32,000 nt of DNA from Breznakia sp. PF5-3. GTDB lineage: Bacteria; Bacillota_I; Bacilli_A; Erysipelotrichales; Erysipelotrichaceae. The DNA lies in contig NZ_JAQFIQ010000007.1 in the NCBI RefSeq assembly GCF_029504745.1, positions 1 to 32,000 on the forward strand, given 5' to 3'. Below are positions 15,445 through 27,773 of this stretch, one piece after another. Within the stretch, counting starts at the first letter, position 1; the number at the start of each line of letters is the position of its first letter. The position numbers and the translations under genes are program-made. The notes below the pieces were generated by a model. It saw only the letters and a list, made by a program, of their open reading frames with translations. It was not told the DNA's origin and did no database searches.

Positions 15445-15466
15445 AAATAGATGAATTGTATAAAAG

Positions 15467-15507
15467 ACCGTATAAGGCACATAAAAAGTGTGCGTATACG
15501 GTTTTTT
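15467..15507 (+). terminator. rho-independent terminator of htpG
   Basis: ACCGTATA..GCACA-loop-TGTGC..TATACGGT followed by TTTTTT. Confidence 0.8.
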
Positions 15508-15565
15508 ATATACTCGTTAGTGTTAAGAAGAATTTACAAAGAAGTTTTAGTTTTATTAGAGTCTT

Positions 15566-15574
15566 TGATATAAT
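15566..15574 (+). promoter_or_regulatory. extended -10 promoter for the HAD hydrolase-rlmD-GNAT unit
   Basis: TGaTATAAT 20 nt upstream of ATG 15594. Confidence 0.45.
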
Positions 15575-15593
15575 AAAACATGAGGTAATCATA

Positions 15594-16217
15594 ATGATAA
15601 AAAATATAGTCTTTGATATTGGAAATGTACTATTAGAGTTTAAACCAGCTGAGCATTTCAAAGATATTAAAAATGCTAATCAGGTATGTACATATATATT
15701 CAATTCATCCGCATGGGAAGCATATGATTTAGGGTTAAAGTCCTTAGATGAAGTGAAAGCGGAATTAATTATGAATTGTAAAGTGTATAAAAATGAAATC
15801 AATGAACTACTATCACGTTGGACAGAAGTATTAAAACCTAAAGGGACAATTCCCTTTATTAAATTGTTTAAAGAAAAGGGATACTCAGTATATTTATTAT
15901 CAAATTTATCATTGGATGCAGCAAATTATATCGAAGCAAATTTTTCGCTTTTCCATGATGTAGATGGATATGTTTTATCTTATTTGGAACATCAGGTAAA
16001 ACCCAATGCAGAGATTTATAAAACATTAGCAAATCGTTATGATTTGAAATTTGAAGAGACTTTGTTTTTAGATGATTTAAAAGCAAATGTAGAAGCTGCA
16101 AAAGCTTTGGGAATGAAAGTTATCCATTATACAGATGATGTATCTGTGGAAATAAAATTACAAAAAGTATTGAAAGGGGCGGACGATGTTAAGAAAGGAT
16201 CAAATGGTGAATGGTGA
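15594..16217 (+). CDS. HAD-IA family hydrolase
   Basis: The track ORF 15456..16217 includes the htpG terminator. The real start is ATG 15594 (MIKNIVFDIGNVLL) after GAGG. Motifs FDIGNVL, LLSN and FLDDL..NV are the HAD motifs I-IV. Confidence 0.8.
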   Translation: MIKNIVFDIGNVLLEFKPAEHFKDIKNANQVCTYIFNSSAWEAYDLGLKSLDEVKAELIMNCKVYKNEINELLSRWTEVLKPKGTIPFIKLFKEKGYSVYLLSNLSLDAANYIEANFSLFHDVDGYVLSYLEHQVKPNAEIYKTLANRYDLKFEETLFLDDLKANVEAAKALGMKVIHYTDDVSVEIKLQKVLKGADDVKKGSNGEW

Positions 16218-17550
16218 AATAGAAGCTATTCAACCAAACGGATTAGGAGTGTTTATGTATAAGAAGGACAAACTTTTCATGAAGTATGTTCTAAAAGGTG
16301 AGAAGGTAAGTGGGAAGGTAGTTAAAAAAATACGTGATGGGTATTTGGCAGAACTGGTACAAGTACAAAAACCATCTAGTATCAGAACAAAAGTGAAGTG
16401 TTCATATTTTCAAAAATGTGGAAGTTGTAATTATTTGCATATGTTATATCCATTTGAATTAAAACAGAAGACAGAAGCGGTGAAACAACTTGCAAACAAA
16501 GGTAAAATAAACATTAACGTTCATAATTGTGAAGGTTTAGAGGAACCTTATGCATATCGTAATAAGTTGGCACTAACATTTACAAAAAATAGAAAAAATG
16601 ATGTTATTGCTGGGTTTTATGAACCACTATCTCACAAGGTGGTAAACATCGATAAGTGTTTGTTGCATGATGATGCAACAAATACATTAATCAAGGATAT
16701 TAAGGAAGTTGTAAAGAAGTGTCGTTTAGATATCTATGATGAGAATAAGCGCACTGGTTTTTTGCGTCATGTATTAGTGCGTGAAAATACAGATAAAAAA
16801 TTTATGGTGACATTTATAACAGCTGAAAAAGAATTTAAAGGAAAGAAGAAATTCCTTCAAGAGTTGTTGAATAGGAATGAACATATCGAAGCAGTTGTAC
16901 AAAATATAAACAATCGTAATACGAGTGTTCTTTTAGGTAATCAAGAATATGTACTTTATGGAAAAGGATATTTCTATGATACACTTTGTGGCTTAACTTT
17001 TAAGATATCACCGAAGTCTTTTTACCAAATCAATCATGAACAATGTGAAAAACTATATGATAAAGCATTGTCTTTATTGGATTTAAAAGGTGATGAAGTA
17101 ATTGTTGATACATATTGTGGTATTGGAACGATTAGTTTATTAGCTGCTCAAAAAGCAAAGCGTGTGATGGCAGTAGAAGTAAACAAGGATGCCATTAAGG
17201 ATGCAAATATAAATAGAGAATGTAATCATATTGATAATATTGAATTTTTTGCCCAGGATGCAGGAGCATTTATGCAAAAGTTAGCAAGTGAAAAGACAAT
17301 GGTGGATGTAGTAATTATAGATCCAGCAAGAGATGGGTGTGATGAGAATTTCTTACAAGCCCTAACAAAGTTGAAACCTAAAAAAATAGTGTATATCTCA
17401 TGTAATCCAGAAACTCAAGTACGTGATCTTAAATATTTATCTAGACAGTATACGTATAAAGACATGTATCTATTTGATATGTTTCCAAAGACAAGTCATG
17501 TAGAGAGTGTAGTGTTGATGACGAGAGATAATCAAAGGAGAGATTTATGA
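16186..17550 (+). CDS. rlmD: 23S rRNA (uracil-C5)-methyltransferase, RlmD/RumA family
   Basis: 454 aa. Has an N-terminal TRAM-like domain, the Fe-S motif CSYFQKCGSCNYLHM, the SAM motif DTYCGIGT, and the catalytic ISCNP. It overlaps the HAD gene by 32 nt. Confidence 0.9.
   Translation: MLRKDQMVNGEIEAIQPNGLGVFMYKKDKLFMKYVLKGEKVSGKVVKKIRDGYLAELVQVQKPSSIRTKVKCSYFQKCGSCNYLHMLYPFELKQKTEAVKQLANKGKININVHNCEGLEEPYAYRNKLALTFTKNRKNDVIAGFYEPLSHKVVNIDKCLLHDDATNTLIKDIKEVVKKCRLDIYDENKRTGFLRHVLVRENTDKKFMVTFITAEKEFKGKKKFLQELLNRNEHIEAVVQNINNRNTSVLLGNQEYVLYGKGYFYDTLCGLTFKISPKSFYQINHEQCEKLYDKALSLLDLKGDEVIVDTYCGIGTISLLAAQKAKRVMAVEVNKDAIKDANINRECNHIDNIEFFAQDAGAFMQKLASEKTMVDVVIIDPARDGCDENFLQALTKLKPKKIVYISCNPETQVRDLKYLSRQYTYKDMYLFDMFPKTSHVESVVLMTRDNQRRDL
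17497..17522 (+). repeat. direct repeat copy 1 (rlmD 3' end, att-like)
   Basis: CATGTAGAGAGTGTAGTGTTGATGAC is identical to 18037-18062. It encodes HVESVVLMT of rlmD. Confidence 0.9.
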
Positions 17551-17981
17551 TACGAGAAATTATAAATAGTGACTTCGATGAATTAATGAAATTATACACT
17601 CAACTGCATAACAATCCATTTCCAGTGAGAAATAATGAAATGATGGCTTTGTGGGATAACGTAATCAATGATACTAATCATCATATAATTGTTGCTGAAG
17701 AGAACGGAAGAATTGTTTCCTCATGTGTATGTGTGATAATTCCTAACCTAACACGAAACCAACGTCCATACGCATTTATTGAGAATGTCGTAACTGATGA
17801 AGCCCATCGAAAAAGAGGACTTGCAACAGCTTGCTTGAATTATGCTAGAGACATTGCCCTAAAAGAAAAATGTTATAAAATGATGTTGTTGACTGGCTCA
17901 AAGCAAGAAAGCACTTTGCATTTTTATGAGCGAGCAGGTTATAAAAGGAACGATAAAACAGCGTTTATTCAGTGGTTGTAA
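17547..17981 (+). CDS. GNAT family N-acetyltransferase (cargo of the insertion)
   Basis: 144 aa. Its ATG overlaps the rlmD stop (ATGA), and it has its own RBS AAAGGAGAG. Motif A is HRKRGLATACL. Confidence 0.8.
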   Translation: MIREIINSDFDELMKLYTQLHNNPFPVRNNEMMALWDNVINDTNHHIIVAEENGRIVSSCVCVIIPNLTRNQRPYAFIENVVTDEAHRKRGLATACLNYARDIALKEKCYKMMLLTGSKQESTLHFYERAGYKRNDKTAFIQWL

Positions 17982-18036
17982 CATCTATTCCGTCAACACA
18001 ACCCCAAGTATCCGCATTAATTCAATCCACTCACCG

Positions 18037-18062
18037 CATGTAGAGAGTGTAGTGTTGATGAC
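18037..18062 (+). repeat. direct repeat copy 2 (att-like)
   Basis: Identical 26-mer. It is followed by AAAAGGGAAAGCATAA, the presumed ancestral rlmD terminus. Confidence 0.9.
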
Positions 18063-18104
18063 AAAAGGGAAAGCATAATACTTAACAAGTGAGGAGGATG
18101 ATTT

Positions 18105-18758
18105 ATGAGCTCTGAGTGGTCAGATTTGAATAAAACCATGCAAAATCAAATAAAGAAAAAAGATTCTTTTAATGATGGGATTAATACATTGTTAGAATTA
18201 CGCAAGGGGTTGTTGAAGGAAATTTTCAAGTTCAAAGACACTATAAAGAGAAATGATTTTGATAAGATACCATTTATAAATGCAAAGGGATATCACAACA
18301 AGACGATTGTTTATTCACTTTGGCATATTTTTCGGATTGAGGATATCGTTACACATACGTTAATCCAAAAAGATAAGCAAATTTTCTTTGATAAGGATTA
18401 TCAAAAACGAATAAACTCTCCTATCATTACTACTGGAAATGAATTAGTAAAAGAAGAAATTTCTGATTTTTCCAAAGACCTTAACTTGGATGAACTCTAT
18501 CAATATATAGTTGATGTTAACGAAAGTACGATAGAATTGTTAAGAAATTTGTCTTATTCTGATTTGAAAATCCAAATGAGTAATATGGATAAAGAACAAA
18601 TAAAAGAGTTAAAGGTTGTAAGTGATGATGAAAATGCTGCTTGGCTGATTGATTACTGGTGCAAAAAAAATATTAAAGGATTAATTACAATGCCTTTATC
18701 AAGGCATTGGATAATGCATGTTGATGCCTGTTCCAGAATCTTAAAGAAAGTATTGTGA
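18105..18758 (+). CDS. hypothetical protein, possibly DinB/YfiT-like helical bundle
   Basis: 217 aa with RBS GAGGAGG. The His-containing helices LWHIFRIEDIVTH and SRHWIMHVDAC are reminiscent of DinB_2, but the assignment is weak. Confidence 0.35.
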   Translation: MSSEWSDLNKTMQNQIKKKDSFNDGINTLLELRKGLLKEIFKFKDTIKRNDFDKIPFINAKGYHNKTIVYSLWHIFRIEDIVTHTLIQKDKQIFFDKDYQKRINSPIITTGNELVKEEISDFSKDLNLDELYQYIVDVNESTIELLRNLSYSDLKIQMSNMDKEQIKELKVVSDDENAAWLIDYWCKKNIKGLITMPLSRHWIMHVDACSRILKKVL

Positions 18759-18979: not shown

Positions 18980-19426
18980 ATGGAAATATTATATAGCCCA
19001 GTCAAAGGGTGTGCGATTAAATTAGAAAAGGTGAATGATGAAATGTTTTCACAAAAAATGCTAGGTGATGGAATTGCAGTTATACCAGAAAATGATGAGT
19101 TTGCTTCACCGATTGATGGAGAGATAACACTTGTTTATGAAACGCAACACGCAATTGCAATAAAAACAGAAAAGGATACAGAAATATTGATTCATATCGG
19201 AATCGACACAATGAATTTAGAAGGAGAACCCTTTGACACAAAAGTAAAAGTTGGGGATAAAGTAAAAAAGGGCGATTTATTAACACGAATTAATTGGAGT
19301 ATCATTTTGAAAAAGGGGTTAGAAAAGGTGGTGCCAATTATTGTGTTAAACAAAGAAGTGCAAACAGTGGATAACAATGAAGAAATAGAGATAGAAGTAG
19401 GAGATCCATTGTTAAGTATTGAATAG
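18980..19426 (+). CDS. PTS EIIA component, glucose family
   Basis: 148 aa. MFSQKMLGDGIAV.P, HAIAIKT and ILIHIGIDT (the two conserved His) are EIIA-Glc signatures. Confidence 0.9.
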   Translation: MEILYSPVKGCAIKLEKVNDEMFSQKMLGDGIAVIPENDEFASPIDGEITLVYETQHAIAIKTEKDTEILIHIGIDTMNLEGEPFDTKVKVGDKVKKGDLLTRINWSIILKKGLEKVVPIIVLNKEVQTVDNNEEIEIEVGDPLLSIE

Positions 19427-19447
19427 ATTATATGGAGGTAGCCAAAG

Positions 19448-20278
19448 ATGATTGCAAAGAAAGTTTATAACAACAATATAGTTATGGCAATTGATGAAGA
19501 TAGTAACGAAGTAATTCTTGCGGGAAAAGGGGTTGCCTATGGATTGAAAAAAGGGGATACGATAGATAAACATAGAGTTGAAAAGAGGTTTGAATTAAAA
19601 AAGGATACAAGAACTCGGTTTGGAGAATTGATTCAAGATATACCATTAGATTATGTCATTATTTCAGAAGAAATAATTGCTTATATAAAAGAAAAAAGTG
19701 GTAAGAAAATCAATGATAGTATTTATGTAACATTAACTGATCATATAGTTAATTCTATCGAAAGAATTAAAATGGGAATAGATTTTGATATGACTTTATT
19801 GGTAAATGTAAAAACGTTATATAAAGAAGAATTCAAATTAGCATTGCACGCAGTAGATATGTTAAGAGATTATTTTAAAATTACGTTTAGTGATGATGAA
19901 GCATATTTTATTACTTTGCATATTGTAAATTCTCAGTTTGAATCCAACATGATGGAAATGTATACAATAACATCTATATTAGAAAATATTACGAGTATTG
20001 TTAATCAAAACTTTGATATTGATATAGAGGATAATTATAATTATGATCGTTTTATGACACATTGTAGATTTTTTATTCAAAGGATTATTAATCAAGAACA
20101 CTTTGAGCAAAATAGTGCTTTGAATTATACATTAATGGAATCCGCAAAAGAAAAACTACCAAAGCAAATGGAGTGTGTGAACGAGATTGCTACATATGTT
20201 GAAAAAAAATATGGATATGTAACCAGTGAAGATGAAAAGATGTATTTACTTTTTCATTTAGGAAGATTAACAGAATAG
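19448..20278 (+). CDS. licT: BglG/LicT/SacY family transcription antiterminator
   Basis: 276 aa. The N-terminal CAT RNA-binding domain (KVYNNNIVMA.D....EVILAGKGVAYG.KKGD.ID) is followed by two PRD-like halves (TLTDHI.., FITLHI..). Confidence 0.9.
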   Translation: MIAKKVYNNNIVMAIDEDSNEVILAGKGVAYGLKKGDTIDKHRVEKRFELKKDTRTRFGELIQDIPLDYVIISEEIIAYIKEKSGKKINDSIYVTLTDHIVNSIERIKMGIDFDMTLLVNVKTLYKEEFKLALHAVDMLRDYFKITFSDDEAYFITLHIVNSQFESNMMEMYTITSILENITSIVNQNFDIDIEDNYNYDRFMTHCRFFIQRIINQEHFEQNSALNYTLMESAKEKLPKQMECVNEIATYVEKKYGYVTSEDEKMYLLFHLGRLTE

Positions 20279-20484
20279 AATAGATAATAAACGTATCTTG
20301 GGGTTGTTTGTTTTACTAATTTACCAAATGCGACAATGTATTTAAATACATGGGAATACGTTATTATACATCAAGCAAAAAAAAGGATATATGTAATAGG
20401 AATTGTTTGGTGATTTAAAAATTAGTAGAAAGGGATATGATGAAAGTCCAAGTCATCATACTAGGTTTGAAATAAAATAAAATT

Positions 20485-20514
20485 GGATGGTTACAGTAAG
20501 GCTGGCCAAACCTC
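20485..20514 (+). promoter_or_regulatory. RAT 2 upstream of the EIIBC gene
   Basis: GGATGGTTACAGTAAGGCTGGCCAAACCTC versus the B. subtilis-type RAT GGATTGTTACTGcattcgCAGGCAAAACC. Both conserved halves are present. Confidence 0.6.
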
Positions 20515-20553
20515 TTAATAGTTTTTAATTAATTATTGAGGAGGAAATGAAGA

Positions 20554-21981
20554 ATGAAATATATTGAAATGTCAAAAGTTGTGTTAGAGAATGTTGGGGG
20601 ATTAGAAAATATAAAGTTTGTTGAAAGATGTGCCACACGTTTGCGAATTCACTTCTTTAAAAAATCAAAAGTAGATCTAGAAGCTATAAAAAAAGCAGAA
20701 GGTGTTATGGGGGTAGTTGAAAAAGGGGGACAAATTCAATTAATTATAGGTCCAACAGTTCAAGAAGCTTATACTGATTTTTTAGAAGTATCAGGATTTA
20801 AATTATCAGGTAATGAATCTCCTGTTTCAGATGATAATGAGGAAGAAGAGAAGAACTTCTCTTATTATGTAAATGCATTTGGTAGTTTTGCAGCAGGTGT
20901 ATTTATGCCGATTATTCCAGCTTTGGTTACAGGGGGATTAATTTTATCAATTAAAAATTTATTAGTTAATTACATGGGATTTGGTGTAGACTCTGGAACT
21001 GCACAGATTATGTTAGCAATTTTCAGTGCGGGTTTCTCTATGTTACCAGTTTGGATAGGATATACATTATCAAGTAAATTGAAGATGGAACCTATTATGG
21101 GAGCATTTTTAGGAGCAGTTCTTGTAAGTGGGTCAATAAGTGGAGTTGAAGGACTAGATTTTTTTGGTATTTCAGTTCCGGCAGTTGCTTATGAAAGTAG
21201 TGTAATGCCAATTGTATTTGGTGTTGTTTTTATGTATTTTGTGAATAAATTACTTGTTAAAATCATTCCTGATATGGTAGTTTTCTTTTTAAAACCACTG
21301 TTAACAATGGCAATTGTTGTGCCAGTAACATTAATTGTTTTGGGACCAATTGGAACTGAATTGAGTGGTGCGGTTGGAAACTTTATGGAAGCTTTTATGG
21401 GAGTTGCTGGATGGCTAGCAGTCCCTGTAATTGCAGCTTTATACCCATATATGGTTATGCTTGGATTGGATAAGGCAATTACAGTTATTATGATTGAATC
21501 GATTGCTACAACAGGAGCAGATAATTGGGTGTTAGTAACTGGACTTGTATCAAATTTATGTATTGGTGCAGCAGCATTGGCAGTCGCATTGCATGTAAGA
21601 GATAGAAAACAAAAAGGGCTGGTTGCATCTTTTGGTGTAACTGCACTTTGTGGAGTTACTGAACCTGCATTTTATGGTTCTTTGATTATGCGTCCAAAAT
21701 GCCTTGTTGGAGTTGCAACAGGAGCAATTGCTGGTGGGTTAGTAGCTGGTATCTTTGGACTTCAAAACTACGTTGTAGGAGGTTGCCCAGGATTATTGAC
21801 CGCTTTATTCTTCTTGCCAGAAGATGGAAGTATGGGAAACTTTATTTTATTTTGGATAGTATGTGCAATTTCGATTGTTGTATCGTTTGTTGCAACAACA
21901 TTTATTTTAAAAAGAATGAATAAAGTAAGTGAAACGGAAATTGATATGGTAGGAGAAACTGAAACAGTTACTGCAAAATAA
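20554..21981 (+). CDS. PTS EIIBC component, glucose/beta-glucoside family
   Basis: 475 aa. The EIIB phospho-Cys motif ERCATRLRIHF is followed by a polytopic EIIC domain. GAGGAGG RBS 9 nt upstream. Confidence 0.9.
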   Translation: MKYIEMSKVVLENVGGLENIKFVERCATRLRIHFFKKSKVDLEAIKKAEGVMGVVEKGGQIQLIIGPTVQEAYTDFLEVSGFKLSGNESPVSDDNEEEEKNFSYYVNAFGSFAAGVFMPIIPALVTGGLILSIKNLLVNYMGFGVDSGTAQIMLAIFSAGFSMLPVWIGYTLSSKLKMEPIMGAFLGAVLVSGSISGVEGLDFFGISVPAVAYESSVMPIVFGVVFMYFVNKLLVKIIPDMVVFFLKPLLTMAIVVPVTLIVLGPIGTELSGAVGNFMEAFMGVAGWLAVPVIAALYPYMVMLGLDKAITVIMIESIATTGADNWVLVTGLVSNLCIGAAALAVALHVRDRKQKGLVASFGVTALCGVTEPAFYGSLIMRPKCLVGVATGAIAGGLVAGIFGLQNYVVGGCPGLLTALFFLPEDGSMGNFILFWIVCAISIVVSFVATTFILKRMNKVSETEIDMVGETETVTAK

Positions 21982-21986
21982 TTCGC

Positions 21987-22020
21987 AAAGACTCCTACTA
22001 TAATAGGAGTCTTTGTTTCT
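21987..22020 (+). terminator. intra-locus hairpin / leaky terminator between EIIBC and the peptidase genes
   Basis: AAAGACTCCTA-ctataa-TAGGAGTCTTT followed by GTTTCT (interrupted U tract). Confidence 0.55.
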
Positions 22021-22047
22021 ATAAAAAGCAGACAGAGAGGACTAAAT

Positions 22048-23487
22048 ATGAAAGTTTTAGTTGGAGAATTTGTCACCGAGTCTAATTCAAATGTTCCAAA
22101 TATGTGTGAACTTAAGGATTATGATATAAGCTTTGGTGATGAATGTATAAGAAAAATGAAAATTAGGGATGTATTTGATAAAAATAATATCAAATTGATA
22201 CCTTCTATATATGCAAATGCAGGCGCATCAGGAGTTATAGAAAAAGCTAGTTTTCAATATATTGAAAACTACTTATTAAAAAAGATAAAAAACCATATCC
22301 ATGAAATTGATGGAATTTTTCTAATGCTTCATGGTGCAAGCGAGGTGCAAGGAATAGGTTCAGGAGATCATCATATTTTGAAAGAAATTCGGAGATTGGT
22401 AGGTGAATATATGCCAGTTGCTGTTGTATGTGATCCACATGGAAATCTTGAAAAAGAATATGTAGAAGCAATACAAATTCTTAGAAGTTATCGTGAATCT
22501 CCACACATTGATGCAGATAAAACAATGCATATTGTAGCCCAAATGCTTTGTGACCTTTTAAAAAACCGTAGATCAATGCATGCAATTTATAGAAAATTGC
22601 CATTAATATTGGGTGGTGAGCAAAGTGTGTCAGAGGATGAGCCTGTACATTCAATCAATACATATTTAAATACATTGGAAAAAGATGAAAAAATCATGAG
22701 CGCATCATGGCATGTAGGCTATTTACGACATGATTGCGAAGTTGCAGGTTGTGGAATCGTGATTGTTCCAAGTGACGATAAACATCAAAAATATGCAAAT
22801 CAAAAAGCAGATGAATTAGCAGCTTATGTCTGGAGCAAAAGATATGATTTTCATTATACAGGATTGACGATGTCGTTAGAAGAATCATTAAAATATGCGT
22901 ATGCATTTAAGGAGAAACCATTTTTTATTACTGATTCAGGTGACAATGTGACTTCGGGAGCAACAGGATGGAATACCTACTTATTGGAGAATGTCTTAAA
23001 GACCAATACAGTGAATAAAAAGATTCTTTTCGCTTCTATTTGTGATCCTGATACCTATAATCAATTATCAAAAGTTGAAGATTCAATAATTGATATTGAA
23101 CTTGGTGTTGGTTATGACGAGTTAAGTAAACCAATTCGAGGGAAGGTGAAGATTGTAGGAAATGGAGAACTTTTTGGTTTCATGATGCATGATCCTGATT
23201 CTATTTTCGGACAGTGTGTAACGGCTAATTTCGTGGGTACGAACATTGATGTAATTATTGCAAATACAAATTGGGCGTTGTGTGAACTACAGCAATTTAA
23301 GAAGATTGGAATTGATGTAAAAGATTACGATATTGTAGTTGTGAAACAAGGGTATATATTTCCAGAATTGAAAGCAATTGGTGCGGGGAATGTGATGGCA
23401 TTGACGGATGGTGCAACTCCACAAGATACAGCATCATTAAAATTCAAACGTATTATGAGACCAATGTTTCCGATTGACAAGATATAA
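22048..23487 (+). CDS. M81 family metallopeptidase (MlrC-like; DUF1485 + MlrC C-terminal domain), paralog 1
   Basis: 479 aa. The MKVLVGEFVTESNSNVP N-terminus (compare MlrC G.F.HETNTF), LHGA, CDPHGN, SWHVGY and DSGDN blocks are typical of the MlrC/DUF1485 family. Confidence 0.75.
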   Translation: MKVLVGEFVTESNSNVPNMCELKDYDISFGDECIRKMKIRDVFDKNNIKLIPSIYANAGASGVIEKASFQYIENYLLKKIKNHIHEIDGIFLMLHGASEVQGIGSGDHHILKEIRRLVGEYMPVAVVCDPHGNLEKEYVEAIQILRSYRESPHIDADKTMHIVAQMLCDLLKNRRSMHAIYRKLPLILGGEQSVSEDEPVHSINTYLNTLEKDEKIMSASWHVGYLRHDCEVAGCGIVIVPSDDKHQKYANQKADELAAYVWSKRYDFHYTGLTMSLEESLKYAYAFKEKPFFITDSGDNVTSGATGWNTYLLENVLKTNTVNKKILFASICDPDTYNQLSKVEDSIIDIELGVGYDELSKPIRGKVKIVGNGELFGFMMHDPDSIFGQCVTANFVGTNIDVIIANTNWALCELQQFKKIGIDVKDYDIVVVKQGYIFPELKAIGAGNVMALTDGATPQDTASLKFKRIMRPMFPIDKI

Positions 23488-23501
23488 GGAGGTATAGAAC
23501 A

Positions 23502-24950
23502 ATGAAAATATTAGTTGCAAAGTTTGTTTTAGAAGCTAATGCCAATGTACCAATGATGAGCGATTTAGAAAACACAGCTCTTTCTTTTGGTGAAGAGGCC
23601 CTTACTCATATGCAATTAGGAGATGTTTTTCGTGATGAAGATATAGAATTGATTCCTGTGATTTGCGCAGATGCAGGATGTAGTGGAGTGATGAAAAAGA
23701 AGGCTTTCAATTATATTGAACAGAGTATTTTAGATGCAATCAAAGAAAATCGTAATGAAATTGATGCTATTTATCTTCATTTACATGGAGCAAGTGAAAT
23801 TGAAGATTTAGAAGCTGGATCAGGGGAACATCATTTATTGAAGGAAGTACGAAAAATAGTAGGTCCTTATATGCCGATTGGAATTTCTTGTGATCCTCAC
23901 GGAAATCTTTGTAAGGAATATGTAGAGAGCGCAAACATTATCCGTTCTTTTCGTGAAGCCCCACATACAGATATTCCAGAAACTGTACAATTTGTTTGTC
24001 GTGAATTAGTGAAATTAGTTCGTGAACGAAGAAGGATTACTCCTGTTTATCGAAAATTACCTTTAATTTTAGGCGGAGAACAAACCGTTTCTTTAGATGA
24101 ACCAGTGAAATCAATTAATTGTTTTATGGATGCTTTAGAAGAGGATGAAAGAATTTTAAGTGCATCATGGCATGTTGGGTATATCCGTCATGATACGCCA
24201 GTCGCAGGTTGTGGGATTGTGGTTATACCATGCGATGATAAATATCGTGATTATGCAAATGAAAAGGCAGATGAGCTAGCATCCTTTGTTTTTGATCGTC
24301 GTCATGAATTTCATTACACGGGAATTACTAAACAACCTGAAGAAGCATTGAATATGGCTTTAAACTTTGAAGGGAGACCAGTTGTGATATCCGATTCAGG
24401 TGATAATGTAACATCAGGTTCTATGGGAGTGAATACATTTATTCTTGAACAAGTGATAAGTGTAGAGAAGCTTCAAAAAAAAGTTTTATTTGCATCTATC
24501 CATGATGTGAACACATATCAACAACTAATGAGTTATTCAATTGGTTCTATAGTAACTATTAAGGTAGGAATGGGAATAGATGAATTGTCAAAACCGGTGG
24601 AATTAAAAGTAACGGTTAAATATAAAGGTCGACAAGAAGGAACGCGGATGTATGGTGAAGATGGTGATTATGGAGGATTGGTTAGAGTGTCGGTGGTTAA
24701 TAAACCAATTGATATTGTCATATGCGAAAATAATCATTCCTTTGTTGAGATTCATCAAATTGAAGCATGTGGTTGTAGTTTAGATGATTATGATATTTTG
24801 ATAGTGAAACAGGGATATATTCATCCTGAACTTTTAGAAGCTGGAAAGCTTTGTATTATGTCTTTGACTAAAGGTGCAACACTTCAGGATACATCGGCAT
24901 TAGATTTTAAATTAATCATGCGCCCAATGTTTCCGATCGATAATATATAG
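23502..24950 (+). CDS. M81 family metallopeptidase (MlrC-like), paralog 2
   Basis: 482 aa with RBS AAGGAGG. Collinear with paralog 1 over the full length, sharing roughly half the positions by eye and the same LHGA / CDPHGN / SWHVGY / DSGDNVTSG / MRPMFPID blocks. Confidence 0.75.
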   Translation: MKILVAKFVLEANANVPMMSDLENTALSFGEEALTHMQLGDVFRDEDIELIPVICADAGCSGVMKKKAFNYIEQSILDAIKENRNEIDAIYLHLHGASEIEDLEAGSGEHHLLKEVRKIVGPYMPIGISCDPHGNLCKEYVESANIIRSFREAPHTDIPETVQFVCRELVKLVRERRRITPVYRKLPLILGGEQTVSLDEPVKSINCFMDALEEDERILSASWHVGYIRHDTPVAGCGIVVIPCDDKYRDYANEKADELASFVFDRRHEFHYTGITKQPEEALNMALNFEGRPVVISDSGDNVTSGSMGVNTFILEQVISVEKLQKKVLFASIHDVNTYQQLMSYSIGSIVTIKVGMGIDELSKPVELKVTVKYKGRQEGTRMYGEDGDYGGLVRVSVVNKPIDIVICENNHSFVEIHQIEACGCSLDDYDILIVKQGYIHPELLEAGKLCIMSLTKGATLQDTSALDFKLIMRPMFPIDNI

Positions 24951-24959
24951 GAGATGAAA

Positions 24960-26336
24960 ATGATTGAACTTAAAAGAGTAAAACGGCCAGAGGTTGAGTA
25001 TAATATTCAACCAGTAGAATTGAGTGATGATACGATAAAAGAACGTAAAAATAAAATATTAAAGGGAATGAAATGTGATGATATTGATGTAATCATCATT
25101 TATGCAGATTTAGAACATGGTTCCAATTTTGAATATCTATGTGGATTTTTGCCAAGATTTGAAGAAGCATTACTTGTATTGCATAGTAATGGAGAAGCCT
25201 ATATGGTATTAGGCAATGAGAATTTGAATAAAGCCTCAAAGGCACGCATTAAAGTAAATGCTATTCATATGCCACATTTTTCATTACCTAATCAACCGAT
25301 GGATAATACTAGAAAAGTATCTCAGATATTAGCAGAATGTAAAATAAATCAAGCTAAAAAAATAGGAATTGTAGGTTGGAAGAATTTCACAAATACGATA
25401 GAAGATTACAGTCAATTGTTTGATATTCCATACTTTGTGATGGATGGATTAAAGGAAGTATGTCCTAATGCAAAATTTGTGAATGGAACATATTTATTTA
25501 TTGGTGAAGAAGGAGCTCGTAATACGAATAATGCAAATGAAATTGCACATTATGAATTTGGAGCTACTTTGGCTGGAAATTGTATGTTGGAAGCATTGGC
25601 AGAGTTTGAAATTGGAAAAAGTGAAATGGAGATAGCATCAAGACTTTCATCTTATGGACAAAGGCATAGTGTTGTTACCATTATGGCTGCAGGAGAAAGG
25701 TTTATAAATGCAAATATGTATCCAAGTTCTAATGAGGTAAAACTGGGTGATAAAATATCTATTACAACTGGTTACAAAGGAGGACTTCAAAGCCGTGGTG
25801 GATATGCTGTTAGTGATGAAGAACAACTTCCAATTAATGAAAGAGATTATGTAAATAGAGTTGCTAAGCCATATTTTAAAGCAGTTGTCACATGGTTAGA
25901 AATGATAAAAATTGGAATAGATGGTACAACATTATATAGTGCAATCAATACGGTTTTACCAAAGGATCAATATGGATGGAGTTTAAATCCAGGTCATCTA
26001 TGTGCTGATGAAGAATGGCTATCTTCACCTGTATATCCAAATTCAAAAGAAGAAATCAAAAGTGGAATGTTATTTCAGATTGATATCATTCCGTCAATAA
26101 AAGGTTATGGAGGAGCAAGTTGTGAGAGTGGTGTTGTTCTTGCAGATGCTAATTTACGTGCTGAAATAAAAAGTAAATATCCACAAATGTGGCAACGATT
26201 TGTGAACAGAAGAAAATTTATAATGGAAGAATTGGGAATTGAATTAAATGAAGAAGTATTACCAACAAGTATAGCAACAGCATACTTTACTCCTTATCTT
26301 TTAAACAAAGATAAAGTATTAGCAGTAATAAAATAA
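24960..26336 (+). CDS. M24/creatinase-fold (pita-bread) protein, aminopeptidase-P-like with atypical metal site
   Basis: The track start 24954 abuts AGGAG, and ATG 24960 has 6-nt spacing. The N-terminal creatinase-N-like region (DIDVIIIYA...) is followed by NANEIAHYEFGATLAGNCMLEALAEFEIGKSEMEIASRL, then GD.ISI and PGH, typical of the M24 fold. Confidence 0.55.
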   Translation: MIELKRVKRPEVEYNIQPVELSDDTIKERKNKILKGMKCDDIDVIIIYADLEHGSNFEYLCGFLPRFEEALLVLHSNGEAYMVLGNENLNKASKARIKVNAIHMPHFSLPNQPMDNTRKVSQILAECKINQAKKIGIVGWKNFTNTIEDYSQLFDIPYFVMDGLKEVCPNAKFVNGTYLFIGEEGARNTNNANEIAHYEFGATLAGNCMLEALAEFEIGKSEMEIASRLSSYGQRHSVVTIMAAGERFINANMYPSSNEVKLGDKISITTGYKGGLQSRGGYAVSDEEQLPINERDYVNRVAKPYFKAVVTWLEMIKIGIDGTTLYSAINTVLPKDQYGWSLNPGHLCADEEWLSSPVYPNSKEEIKSGMLFQIDIIPSIKGYGGASCESGVVLADANLRAEIKSKYPQMWQRFVNRRKFIMEELGIELNEEVLPTSIATAYFTPYLLNKDKVLAVIK

Positions 26337-26354
26337 ATGAAAGAGAGGCAAATA

Positions 26355-27773
26355 ATGCGTAAAGATAAATTTTTATGGGGTAGTGCAACTGCGGCATATC
26401 AATGTGAGGGTGCATGGAATGAAGATGGAAAAGGATTAGGGGAGTGGGATGTTTTCTCTCATGAAAGTCCACTCAATATTAATGGAGCAACAGGAGATAT
26501 TGCCTGTGATTTTTATCATCGTTATAAAGAAGATATTGATATGTTAGTAGAAGGTGGACAAAATACATATCGCTTTTCTATTGCTTGGACTAGGATTATT
26601 CCTGAAGGAGTTGGACAAGTAAATCAAAAGGGAATAGATTTTTATAACCGTGTAATAGATTATTGTTTAGAGAAAGGTGTAGAACCTAATATAACATTAT
26701 TTCACTATGACCTTCCAGAGCCGATTGCAAAGGCGGATGGTTTTGGGAATCGAAAAACAGTAGATGCCTTTGTAGAGTATGCAAAAGTATGTTTTACAGC
26801 ATTTGGTGATCGTGTTAATTTATGGGCAACGATTAATGAACCTAGATATTATGCATATTGTACAAATATGGTAGGGAATTATCCACCTAATCATAAAGTT
26901 GATTTTGATCGTTTTTATCGTGTTTTGTATCATGAAATATTAGCAAGCGCAAAAGCAGTAAAGGTATTTCATGATATGAAATTGAAAGGACGTATTGCCA
27001 TTGTTCATGATAATAGCAATGCAGAAATTGCTCCTGGAACTAAAGAACCACAAAAGATTAAAATGATGGCTGATCTATTTTACACTGATTTAGTATTGGA
27101 AACTTCAATCACAGGAAAAATTCCTGGCGCACTGATACCAATGTTAAGAGAAAATAATATTGATACATCGTTTATAAAGTTTGAAGATGCTATTGATTTC
27201 GCAAATGGAAAAATTGATTATTTAGGATTAAATGTATATAATCGTGTTTACTTAACAGATTACAGCGAGGGTGAAACAGAAGTATTCCATAACAATAAAG
27301 GGAAAGGTTCTAAATCAAAGGAAGGGATTCGTATTAAAGACTGGTTTGAAACAACAGATGATATCCATACAAAACGTAATTTATGGGGAAGAGAAATATA
27401 TCCTAAATGTATTTATAATGCACTTGTAGAAATTAAAGAGCTTTATGGAGATATACCTGTTTACATTACGGAAAACGGACACGGAATGTACGAAACACCT
27501 GATGAGAATGGGTATGTTCAAGATGATGAGAGAATTGAAATGATGCAAGGTTACATTGAGTATATGCTAAAAGCTCGTGAAGATGGATGTAATGTCTGTG
27601 GTTATTATGCTTGGTCCACAATGGATTTGTATAGCTGGGTTAATGGATATGAAAAACGATATGGATTTGTGAGGATTGATTTTGATGATCCAAAATTACC
27701 AAGAATTCCTAAGAAGAGTTATTACTGGTTTAAAAATTTAATTCAGGATTTTTATGATCATCACAATGAATAA
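26355..27773 (+). CDS. GH1 6-phospho-beta-glucosidase
   Basis: ATG 26355 follows AGAGAGG; the alternative ATG 26337 overlaps the upstream stop. Contains FLWGSATAAYQCEGA, the acid/base TINEPR, and the nucleophile YITENG. SWVNGYEKRYGFV is the phosphate-binding S/K/Y signature of the phospho-glycosidase subgroup. Confidence 0.9.
   Translation: MRKDKFLWGSATAAYQCEGAWNEDGKGLGEWDVFSHESPLNINGATGDIACDFYHRYKEDIDMLVEGGQNTYRFSIAWTRIIPEGVGQVNQKGIDFYNRVIDYCLEKGVEPNITLFHYDLPEPIAKADGFGNRKTVDAFVEYAKVCFTAFGDRVNLWATINEPRYYAYCTNMVGNYPPNHKVDFDRFYRVLYHEILASAKAVKVFHDMKLKGRIAIVHDNSNAEIAPGTKEPQKIKMMADLFYTDLVLETSITGKIPGALIPMLRENNIDTSFIKFEDAIDFANGKIDYLGLNVYNRVYLTDYSEGETEVFHNNKGKGSKSKEGIRIKDWFETTDDIHTKRNLWGREIYPKCIYNALVEIKELYGDIPVYITENGHGMYETPDENGYVQDDERIEMMQGYIEYMLKAREDGCNVCGYYAWSTMDLYSWVNGYEKRYGFVRIDFDDPKLPRIPKKSYYWFKNLIQDFYDHHNE

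Follow-up and report, generated by a model that had tools for sequence, protein, structure and literature searches.

A single-gene, integrase-less cassette at the 3' end of rlmD in Breznakia sp. PF5-3 as a probable remnant of a serine-integrase prophage

Streptococcal integrative and conjugative elements (ICEs) with a single serine integrase target the rumA gene, are bounded by direct repeats of 2-21 bp and swap the 3' end of the gene on integration (PMC4701971). For the vanG/ICE-r elements of several Gram-positive species the site was placed at a GA dinucleotide in the GAG codon that is the 11th from the end of rumA, and such elements often lie in tandem (PMC4120198); for ICESluvan the rumA attL was experimentally confirmed as CACGTGGAGTGCGTAGTGTT (PMC4735348). 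Streptococci also harbour cis-mobilisable elements (CIMEs) and decayed ICEs or integrative and mobilisable elements (IMEs), which are flanked by attL and attR and are devoid of integrase and transfer genes (Pavlovic 2004; Guedon 2017, PMC5704250). Here we analyse the 3' end of rlmD (rumA), the gene of the 23S rRNA U1939 methyltransferase, in a stretch of 32,000 nucleotides of Breznakia sp. PF5-3 (contig NZ_JAQFIQ010000007.1, hereafter the window), where two copies of a 26-bp sequence enclose a single gene for a GNAT acetyltransferase. We propose, with a probability of roughly 0.7, that the resulting 540-bp unit (17523-18062) is an integrase-less, CIME-like remnant of a prophage whose serine integrase targets rlmD.

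Like a CIME, this unit is flanked by att-type sites, has neither integrase nor transfer genes and belongs to a class of elements that can come to lie in tandem with an incoming element by accretion. Unlike the CIMEs, it has serine-integrase prophages and not ICEs as relatives, it is tiny (one gene, 0.54 kb), its cargo is apparently linked in translation to the target gene, and its mobilisation is putative. With the rumA serine-integrase elements (ICE-r, vanG, ICESp2905, ICESluvan, CTn5) it shares the target gene, the HVExVVL codons, the GAG codon 11th from the end and the replaced RlmD C-terminus, and tandem insertions occur among those elements too. The latter, however, are ICEs of 45-100 kb, whose single integrase gene spans attR and trades its 3' end with rumA, whereas the window copy is without any integrase and, in its two phage-like relatives discussed below (L029 and L081), a non-coding arm of 100 nt abuts the core. 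Another parallel is offered by staphylococcal cassette chromosome (SCC) and pseudo-SCC elements at staphylococcal rlmH (orfX), where serine recombinases likewise act on the 3' end of a gene for an rRNA methyltransferase and leave this gene preserved, direct repeats mark the boundaries, and recombinase-less remnants and composite arrays pile up; the target there is nevertheless rlmH, the recombinases are CcrAB or CcrC, and there is no sequence relationship to the window cassette.

The window has exactly two copies of the 26-mer CATGTAGAGAGTGTAGTGTTGATGAC, both on the plus strand and without a single difference between them (17497-17522 and 18037-18062), while a match with up to 3 mismatches was obtained in 0 of 100 shuffles (0 expected by chance). 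This bears out the direct duplication described in the original prediction, from which our enquiry started. The first copy, which encodes H438-T446 of RlmD, is regarded here as the attL core and the second one as the attR core. When the 200 nt around each copy were aligned, identity was sharp-edged at both ends and the flanks did not align. A longer, degenerate rlmD duplication to which the repeat would belong, an alternative kept in view at the outset, is therefore rejected. Independent Logan assemblies of SRA runs, and also the NCBI assembly GCA_029504775.1, show the same rlmD-GNAT arrangement, which is thus no assembly artefact. Between the two copies lie a ribosome-binding site (RBS), the gene of the 144-aa GNAT protein and 55 nt, and nothing more, as had been read from the sequence before.

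According to our analysis rlmD (16186-17550, plus strand; TIGR00479 at 387 bits against a cutoff of 183.6, and PF05958) now encodes a protein of 454 aa which ends in HVESVVLMTRDNQRRDL and a stop codon, with the tail LMT-RDNQRRDL, so that copy 1 does belong to the end of the rlmD frame, as was claimed. Judged from its sequence, the gene is a chimera, in which host sequence extends across the repeat and the element appears to supply the stop and the 8 codons before it (17523-17550, RDNQRRDL). The second copy stays in frame to VVLMTKGKA and a stop codon, and this displaced original 3' terminus (HVESVVLMTKGKA, 18037-18078, plus strand), which is now outside the translated RlmD, is followed by a GAGGAGG RBS and by the next ATG at 18105. 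With the copy-2 tail (LMT-KGKA) swapped in, RlmD has 450 aa, the modal length of its closest homologues (P0002-P0008, 449-452 aa), which stop 2-5 residues past the (L/M)(T/S/L/K) that trails the conserved HVESVVL motif. It fits well with the earlier idea that copy 2 is the ancestral terminus. Among the 120 homologues compared, the RlmD C-terminus is most strongly conserved at HVE(S/T/C)(V/I)VL, the motif that the repeat encodes. One RlmD protein, P0015, has an end (KKRDNKRR) resembling the new tail and was considered as its relative; it was set aside, as no cassette lies downstream of it.

A link to mobile DNA comes from the right (P) arm of the unit (17979-18036, plus strand), which starts at the GNAT stop (TAACATCT) and ends in TTAATTCAATCCACTCACCG, in a shortened form. 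Its spacer part (17982-18036, 55 nt) has 45% GC within the 32% GC window and contains no rlmD-derived sequence. Compared alone with a 1-Mb database that comprised all fetched loci, the spacer matches (E=6e-16) positions 10403-10452 of L029, a metagenomic contig found with a pattern from the conserved part of the site; identity over these 50 nt is 94%. The homologous arm of L029 lies directly before a displaced rlmD terminus (HVETVVLLSRY and stop). Upstream of the arm are, in this order, genes for a lysin (glucosaminidase/amidase), for two complete large serine recombinases, which match phrog_95 'integrase' at E=1e-137 and 1e-147 and enclose a shorter recombinase-like open reading frame (ORF), and for the Gabija defence system (GajA 773 bits, GajB 603 bits). 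The second relative, L081, was obtained independently of the site sequence, in a search of viral contigs for relatives of the L029 integrase; its integrase is 87% identical to that of L029, and it was the only match with 10 kb of downstream sequence. It is a prophage, with genes for a tail endopeptidase, a holin and an amidase, then integrase genes and then a cargo of HATPase_c_3, Z1, DUF4420, AIPR and Dcm, and it ends in a homologous arm abutting HVETVVLLERKGQ and a stop (nhmmer E=1e-11, L081 being outside the training set of the profile). Searches with the core pattern and for the attL of L081 found nothing.

On the basis of this homology, 17979-18036 is best described as the attR-side (P) arm of an rlmD-integrating prophage family, and the GNAT gene as sitting where variable cargo sits in the L029 and L081 phages. 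It lends support to the original suggestion of an att-flanked cassette without integrase, decayed or CIME-like, since the spacer is homologous to the attR-side arm of serine-integrase prophage-like elements. In both relatives the integrase genes are closed by stop codons of their own 4-10 kb ahead of the site, and no intact reading frame runs through the arm. The possibility that the arm is a remnant of an integrase 3' coding end, as in the streptococcal rumA ICEs, found no support, as its frames are broken by stops and indels and its 5' boundary is fixed. At the attR junctions of the window, L029, L081 and the smaller insertion L095, element-derived conservation ends at CTCACC(G/A)CATGTnGA and host-specific sequence follows, a pattern that appears compatible with a crossover at that GA. 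As a separate observation, the slot between integrase and attR arm holds differing defence cargo in the two phages, at 6637-10340 in L029 (Gabija) and at 12753-22075 in L081 (HATPase_c_3/Z1/DUF4420/AIPR and the Dcm methylase).

The position of the insertion agrees with the published rumA target as well. The first 20 nt of the repeat are identical to the ICESluvan attL at 16 of 20 positions and encode the same residues, and the GAG codon at which rumA elements insert corresponds to E440 (17503-17505, plus strand), which the repeat contains and which, counted back from the end of the reconstructed 450-aa gene, is codon 11. The analogy with those elements makes the GA of the E440 codon the likely crossover dinucleotide. 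The 18 nt of P' past this presumed crossover are the same as the host B' arm, and therefore attL looks like a regenerated attB over the 35-40 bp that an attB of serine integrases usually has. Of the claim that this is the rlmD/rumA 3' hotspot of Tn5252-type elements, the hotspot stands, with the same codons as in the ICESluvan attL and the GAG codon, and the Tn5252-type source does not, the relatives being serine-integrase prophages. The recombinase class reported for rumA is likewise serine and not tyrosine.

Two more copies of the cassette were found. One of them (L110) belongs to a conspecific strain, which differs by 8 SNPs in 1181 nt and in which the cassette has its full arm of 100 nt; this arm (688-790) has two direct repeats ATTCCGTCAAC, between which the window arm has lost 45 nt. 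The other one is L028, a metagenomic contig of 932 bp, whose arm (634-693) has a similar deletion that arose independently, and the 45-nt indel is polymorphic within the window species. That the short arm is a derived trait common to the two GNAT cassettes, as we had considered, is refuted by L110, which belongs to the same species and has the long form. In L028 the GNAT gene is flanked on both sides by TAACATC..TCAAC..GCATTAATTCAATCnnCTCACCG, then an rlmD-like core ending GTGTTGATGAC, and the cassette has a similar leader behind the same GATGAC boundary as the left arm of the window (17523-17546, plus strand), which contributes the GNAT RBS and the new end of rlmD. In each of three left arms of the window and L028 the core has an RBS and a start codon at most 25 nt behind it. 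The two cores are identical within each genome and different between the window and L028 genomes, the downstream core of L028 being altered from TGGA to CCCC at the GA position; for the ORF behind the L028 cassette no homologues were found. A comparison of the window with L028 gives 79% identity for the non-coding site, against 65.5% for GNAT third codon positions (binomial P = 0.004), which, like the agreement of the cores within each genome, would favour retained function of the sites. The order of sites in L028 suggests that the attL of a GNAT cassette already in place may have received another element with a full-length arm, which would be accretion of the kind described for CIMEs (PMC5704250).

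The site is rare. A scan of 185,579 representative genomes gave 0 matches, a scan of IMG/VR viral contigs gave 0 and afterwards only the contig of L081 itself, a metagenome scan returned only L029, and phage and plasmid BLAST returned nothing. An nhmmer search over 50 related rlmD loci and 17 rlmD-prophage junctions revealed no further member, apart from a weak partial match in L095, and the arms are absent from all 50 related loci. Other copies or elements sharing the site, for which the original prediction had proposed to look, are the arm in L029 and L081 and the cassette in L028 and L110.

From these junctions we suggest the following origin. A mobile element, from a temperate-phage family with large serine integrases, would have entered the rlmD 3' end at the HVE codons by site-specific recombination. 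On integration its rlmD-like end (P') would have taken the place of the last rlmD codons, creating an attL with LMT-RDNQRRDL, and the original end would have been pushed behind its right arm, creating an attR that consists of the P arm and LMTKGKA. Intact relatives keep variable cargo (Gabija; Z1/AIPR/DUF4420/Dcm) between the integrase genes and the right arm; here everything apart from one cargo gene, GNAT, and the two att sites may have been lost later, a deletion step that we infer. The regenerated attB may let further elements integrate upstream by accretion, and a cognate integrase supplied in trans may act on the cassette, which is possibly mobilisable in this way. What is seen in the window agrees with a CIME in two respects: direct att repeats lie at the target of a family of integrative elements, as indicated by the repeat, the arm homology and the target codons, and only GNAT is found between them, with no recombinase or transfer genes. 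No ORF of at least 100 aa in the window encodes a recombinase, phage or conjugation domain.

Several points weigh against a prophage remnant. Empty sites ending in LMTKGKA, for which a comparison with related strains had been proposed, did not appear. The window species is outside the GTDB representative set, and among the nearest genomes (RlmD 63-68% identical) there are unrelated downstream genes, no repeats and no empty site, while both conspecific strains, the window and L110, are occupied. The left ends of L029 and L081 appear to fall outside the recovered sequence, and homology of the left arm to a phage P' is no part of the support. The link between integrase family and site comes from two elements, in which the integrase genes are 4-10 kb off the site. 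Dyad symmetry above the level of shuffles was not found in the reconstructed attP and attB, and the crossover is not pinned by it; the identical 26-bp core and the paired direct repeats of the arm would also suit a tyrosine recombinase. Finally, the window arm, which is 45 nt shorter than that of L110, hints at decay rather than maintained function.

It may be asked whether the 540-bp unit is instead an active mobile gene cassette, a promoterless ORF with a site of 80-100 nt that is excised as a circle by a phage integrase acting in trans, recaptured at the rlmD end with regeneration of attB and expressed from the rlmD promoter, so that arrays grow rlmD-proximally in an integron-like manner. 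Two diverged copies with the same boundaries, the order site-gene-site-ORF in L028, the start of every site at the 5' boundary ACATCT regardless of the upstream gene, the conservation of the site (79%) above neutral positions (65.5%), the identity of the P' and B' arms over 18 nt and the RBS with start codon at most 25 nt from the core in all three left arms would speak for it. The unit also resembles integron cassettes in being a promoterless single ORF with a recombination site, beside a fixed attachment point and behind an upstream promoter; unlike them, it comes without IntI, attI or Pc, there being no tyrosine recombinase in the 32-kb window, has no attC hairpin, and its site is homologous to a phage attP arm. 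We nevertheless find this explanation unlikely, as one cassette type only, GNAT, is seen in two lineages, there is no array beyond the 932-bp contig L028, and the scans gave nothing new in representative genomes and only L029 and L081 in metagenome and viral collections. Single-strand folding is absent (z = -0.2 to -1.5 for both strands of three sites), the shared 5' boundary may equally be the edge of a conserved phage attP region beside the variable cargo slot of L029 and L081, the window copy is minus 45 nt of its arm, and the downstream core of L028 has CCCC for TGGA. A broader form of the same idea, also improbable in our view, would make the rlmD 3' end of Firmicutes an integron-like capture platform for cassettes with an attP arm of 80-100 nt, served in trans by prophage serine integrases, where each insertion would regenerate a functional attB because the P' arm of the cassette copies the host B' arm. 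If true, such a platform would also load cargo, including defence systems, into the phage slot between integrase and attP; this reading draws on one cassette type and one 932-bp contig.

The architecture may also be attributed to another recombinase, with the unit derived from a Tn5252-type ICE or IME with a tyrosine integrase, the 26 bp being its core and the repeats TTCCGTCAAC its arm-type binding sites. A core of 26 bp does exceed the 2-21 bp of serine-integrase rumA elements, the full-length arm has two direct repeats about 45 nt apart, and the reconstructed sites show no dyad symmetry. In the 10-22 kb visible beside the site, however, L029 and L081 show serine recombinases only, the smaller rlmD-inserted L095 and L070 carry serine recombinases too, and the literature ties rumA targeting to serine integrases, which makes this derivation quite unlikely. 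It is very improbable that the GNAT insertion is unconnected to mobile DNA and goes back to illegitimate or microhomology-mediated recombination or to an rlmD end that was duplicated locally. The arrangement is present in every strain sampled of the species, with no empty site known, and the compositional signal of the gene is weak (GC3 z = 2.1), as would suit such an origin; it leaves unexplained, though, the homology of the spacer to prophage attR arms (E=6e-16 and E=1e-11), the flanks that are unalignable beyond the 26-mer and the insertion at the known integrase target codon, and the notion that the arms are common host sequence is contradicted by their absence from related rlmD loci (0/50). 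We therefore retain the prophage remnant, and see in the cassette a product of a known hotspot rather than a new kind of system, which is notable for its minimal size and for an arm shared with defence-carrying phages.

Insertions at the same rlmD spot in other loci of Erysipelotrichales and Firmicutes form a decay series, in which small insertions are bracketed by a second rlmD terminus. In L095 (5286-7830, about 2.5 kb) an intact large serine recombinase of 445 aa lies directly behind rlmD, together with a RhuM-family gene, and the right arm, GCTCACCA joined to CATGTGGAA, has the CTCACCRCATG motif in common with the window arm. In L070 (7096-9900) a frameshifted, truncated serine recombinase and Thoeris (ThsB TIR, ThsA Macro) lie between duplicated rlmD termini; the duplication there runs degenerately upstream into the DMFP codons. 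Longicatena caecimuris DSM 29481 (L079, 7321-10760) has a single DUF262-type defence gene of 1002 aa and no recombinase before the displaced terminus HVESVVLLTKIQK; the best PADLOC matches of this gene are Orf5 and HEC-06. Two successive displaced rlmD termini (7864, 10172) are found in L057 (5145-10215), each behind a conserved arm of about 50 nt of another family, and by its sequence this locus is an array apparently built by another element family; its arms read VKSxTxNxSF before HIESI, and its cargo includes a DUF285/LRR protein and a putative toxin-antitoxin-like gene pair. The window cassette is the smallest in this series.

Other observations concern RlmD in general. Replaced C-termini (LLSKLxxxxHIEV) or extensions of about 100 aa recur in many homologues, as seen in P0034, P0082, P0091 and P0100, in the loci L038 and L054, and in P0060, P0066, P0075, P0080, P0089 and P0096; by analogy with vanG/ICE-r elements, RlmD is probably fused in frame there to the left end of an integrated ICE. 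Upstream, a gene of a HAD-family hydrolase (15456-16217) overlaps the rlmD start at 16186, and the HAD-rlmD pair is conserved in all relatives with the upstream gene examined (L020-L027, L079, L108-L109), with a different downstream gene each time.

The cargo, a GNAT N-acetyltransferase of 144 aa (17547-17981, plus strand; PF00583 at E=1e-18), has no match above the cutoff of any NCBIfam model and no match in PADLOC, and its best match in PDB is 2dxq, an uncharacterised acetyltransferase. The thought that it modifies drugs is unsupported, as its scores against resistance models are 31.8 bits for AAC(3)-I (cutoff 200), 23.8 for AAC(6') group E (140) and 21.2 for Sat4 (380); the protein is not assignable to a resistance family, and hence nothing clinical follows. 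Thousands of GNATs from Lachnospiraceae, Ruminococcus and other Clostridia, likewise of 144 aa, are 72-83% identical to it, whereas for RlmD no homologue above 68% identity exists among 5.8 billion clusters, its own cluster is single-membered, and the nearest named genomes, Erysipelotrichaceae bacterium MTC7 and Breznakia blatticola, reach 63%. The compositional comparison proposed in the original prediction showed a deviation, and only a modest one: the GC content at third codon positions (GC3) is 0.297 in the GNAT gene, and the other 24 genes have 0.224 +/- 0.035 (z = 2.1). Because of its closeness to Clostridia GNATs, of the isolated RlmD and of this GC3 value, the gene looks imported, as far as sequence comparison can tell. 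The window and L028 GNATs are mutual closest relatives (83% aa), with identities of 87%, 95% and 65.5% at the three codon positions, and the protein is thus under purifying selection. The 144-aa subfamily as a whole (P0123-P0240) is unusually conserved (72-83% aa) over many Clostridia, in unrelated single-gene contexts. GNAT homologues with 74-78% identity (L004-L019) were considered as further cassettes and rejected: the three checked stand in ordinary unrelated chromosomal contexts with no site and with similarity over the ORF only. A GNAT gene downstream of rlmD in L020 proved to be unrelated (23% identity).

The GNAT start codon overlaps the rlmD TGA as ATGA, exactly as had been noted earlier, and GGAGAG at 17537-17542 precedes the ATG by 4 nt. 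Within 16186-18758, which comprises rlmD, GNAT and a DinB-like gene, no terminator-like site was found, and promoter-like matches do not exceed the level of shuffles. Since there is no terminator, the ATG overlaps the stop and the gene has its own RBS, GNAT is probably co-expressed as the second cistron of the rlmD transcript, which is the likeliest reading of the sequence. The DinB-like host gene 3' of the original rlmD end (18105-18758, plus strand), a weak assignment (NF047843 at 29 bits, below the cutoff), has its own RBS too and is probably in the same transcription unit. Further downstream, at 18980-27773, lies a phosphotransferase system (PTS)/BglG-type operon with an unusual combination of genes for EIIA, a PRD antiterminator, EIIBC, an M24-like peptidase and a GH1 glycosidase, and also with two tandem MlrC/M81 peptidase paralogues (22048-23487, 23502-24950).

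Best known from streptococcal and enterococcal ICEs, the rumA/rlmD hotspot thus serves serine-integrase prophages of Erysipelotrichaceae-like gut bacteria as well, and decay at this place can go as far as one gene that probably stays tied to the transcript of a housekeeping gene. In annotation, such islets may be recognised cheaply by a duplicated rlmD terminus. The shared 100-nt arm links integrase-less islets, with GNAT here and single defence genes elsewhere, to phages with defence cargo in the same slot, and suggests that accessory and defence genes may shuttle between chromosome and phage via accretion and co-excision.

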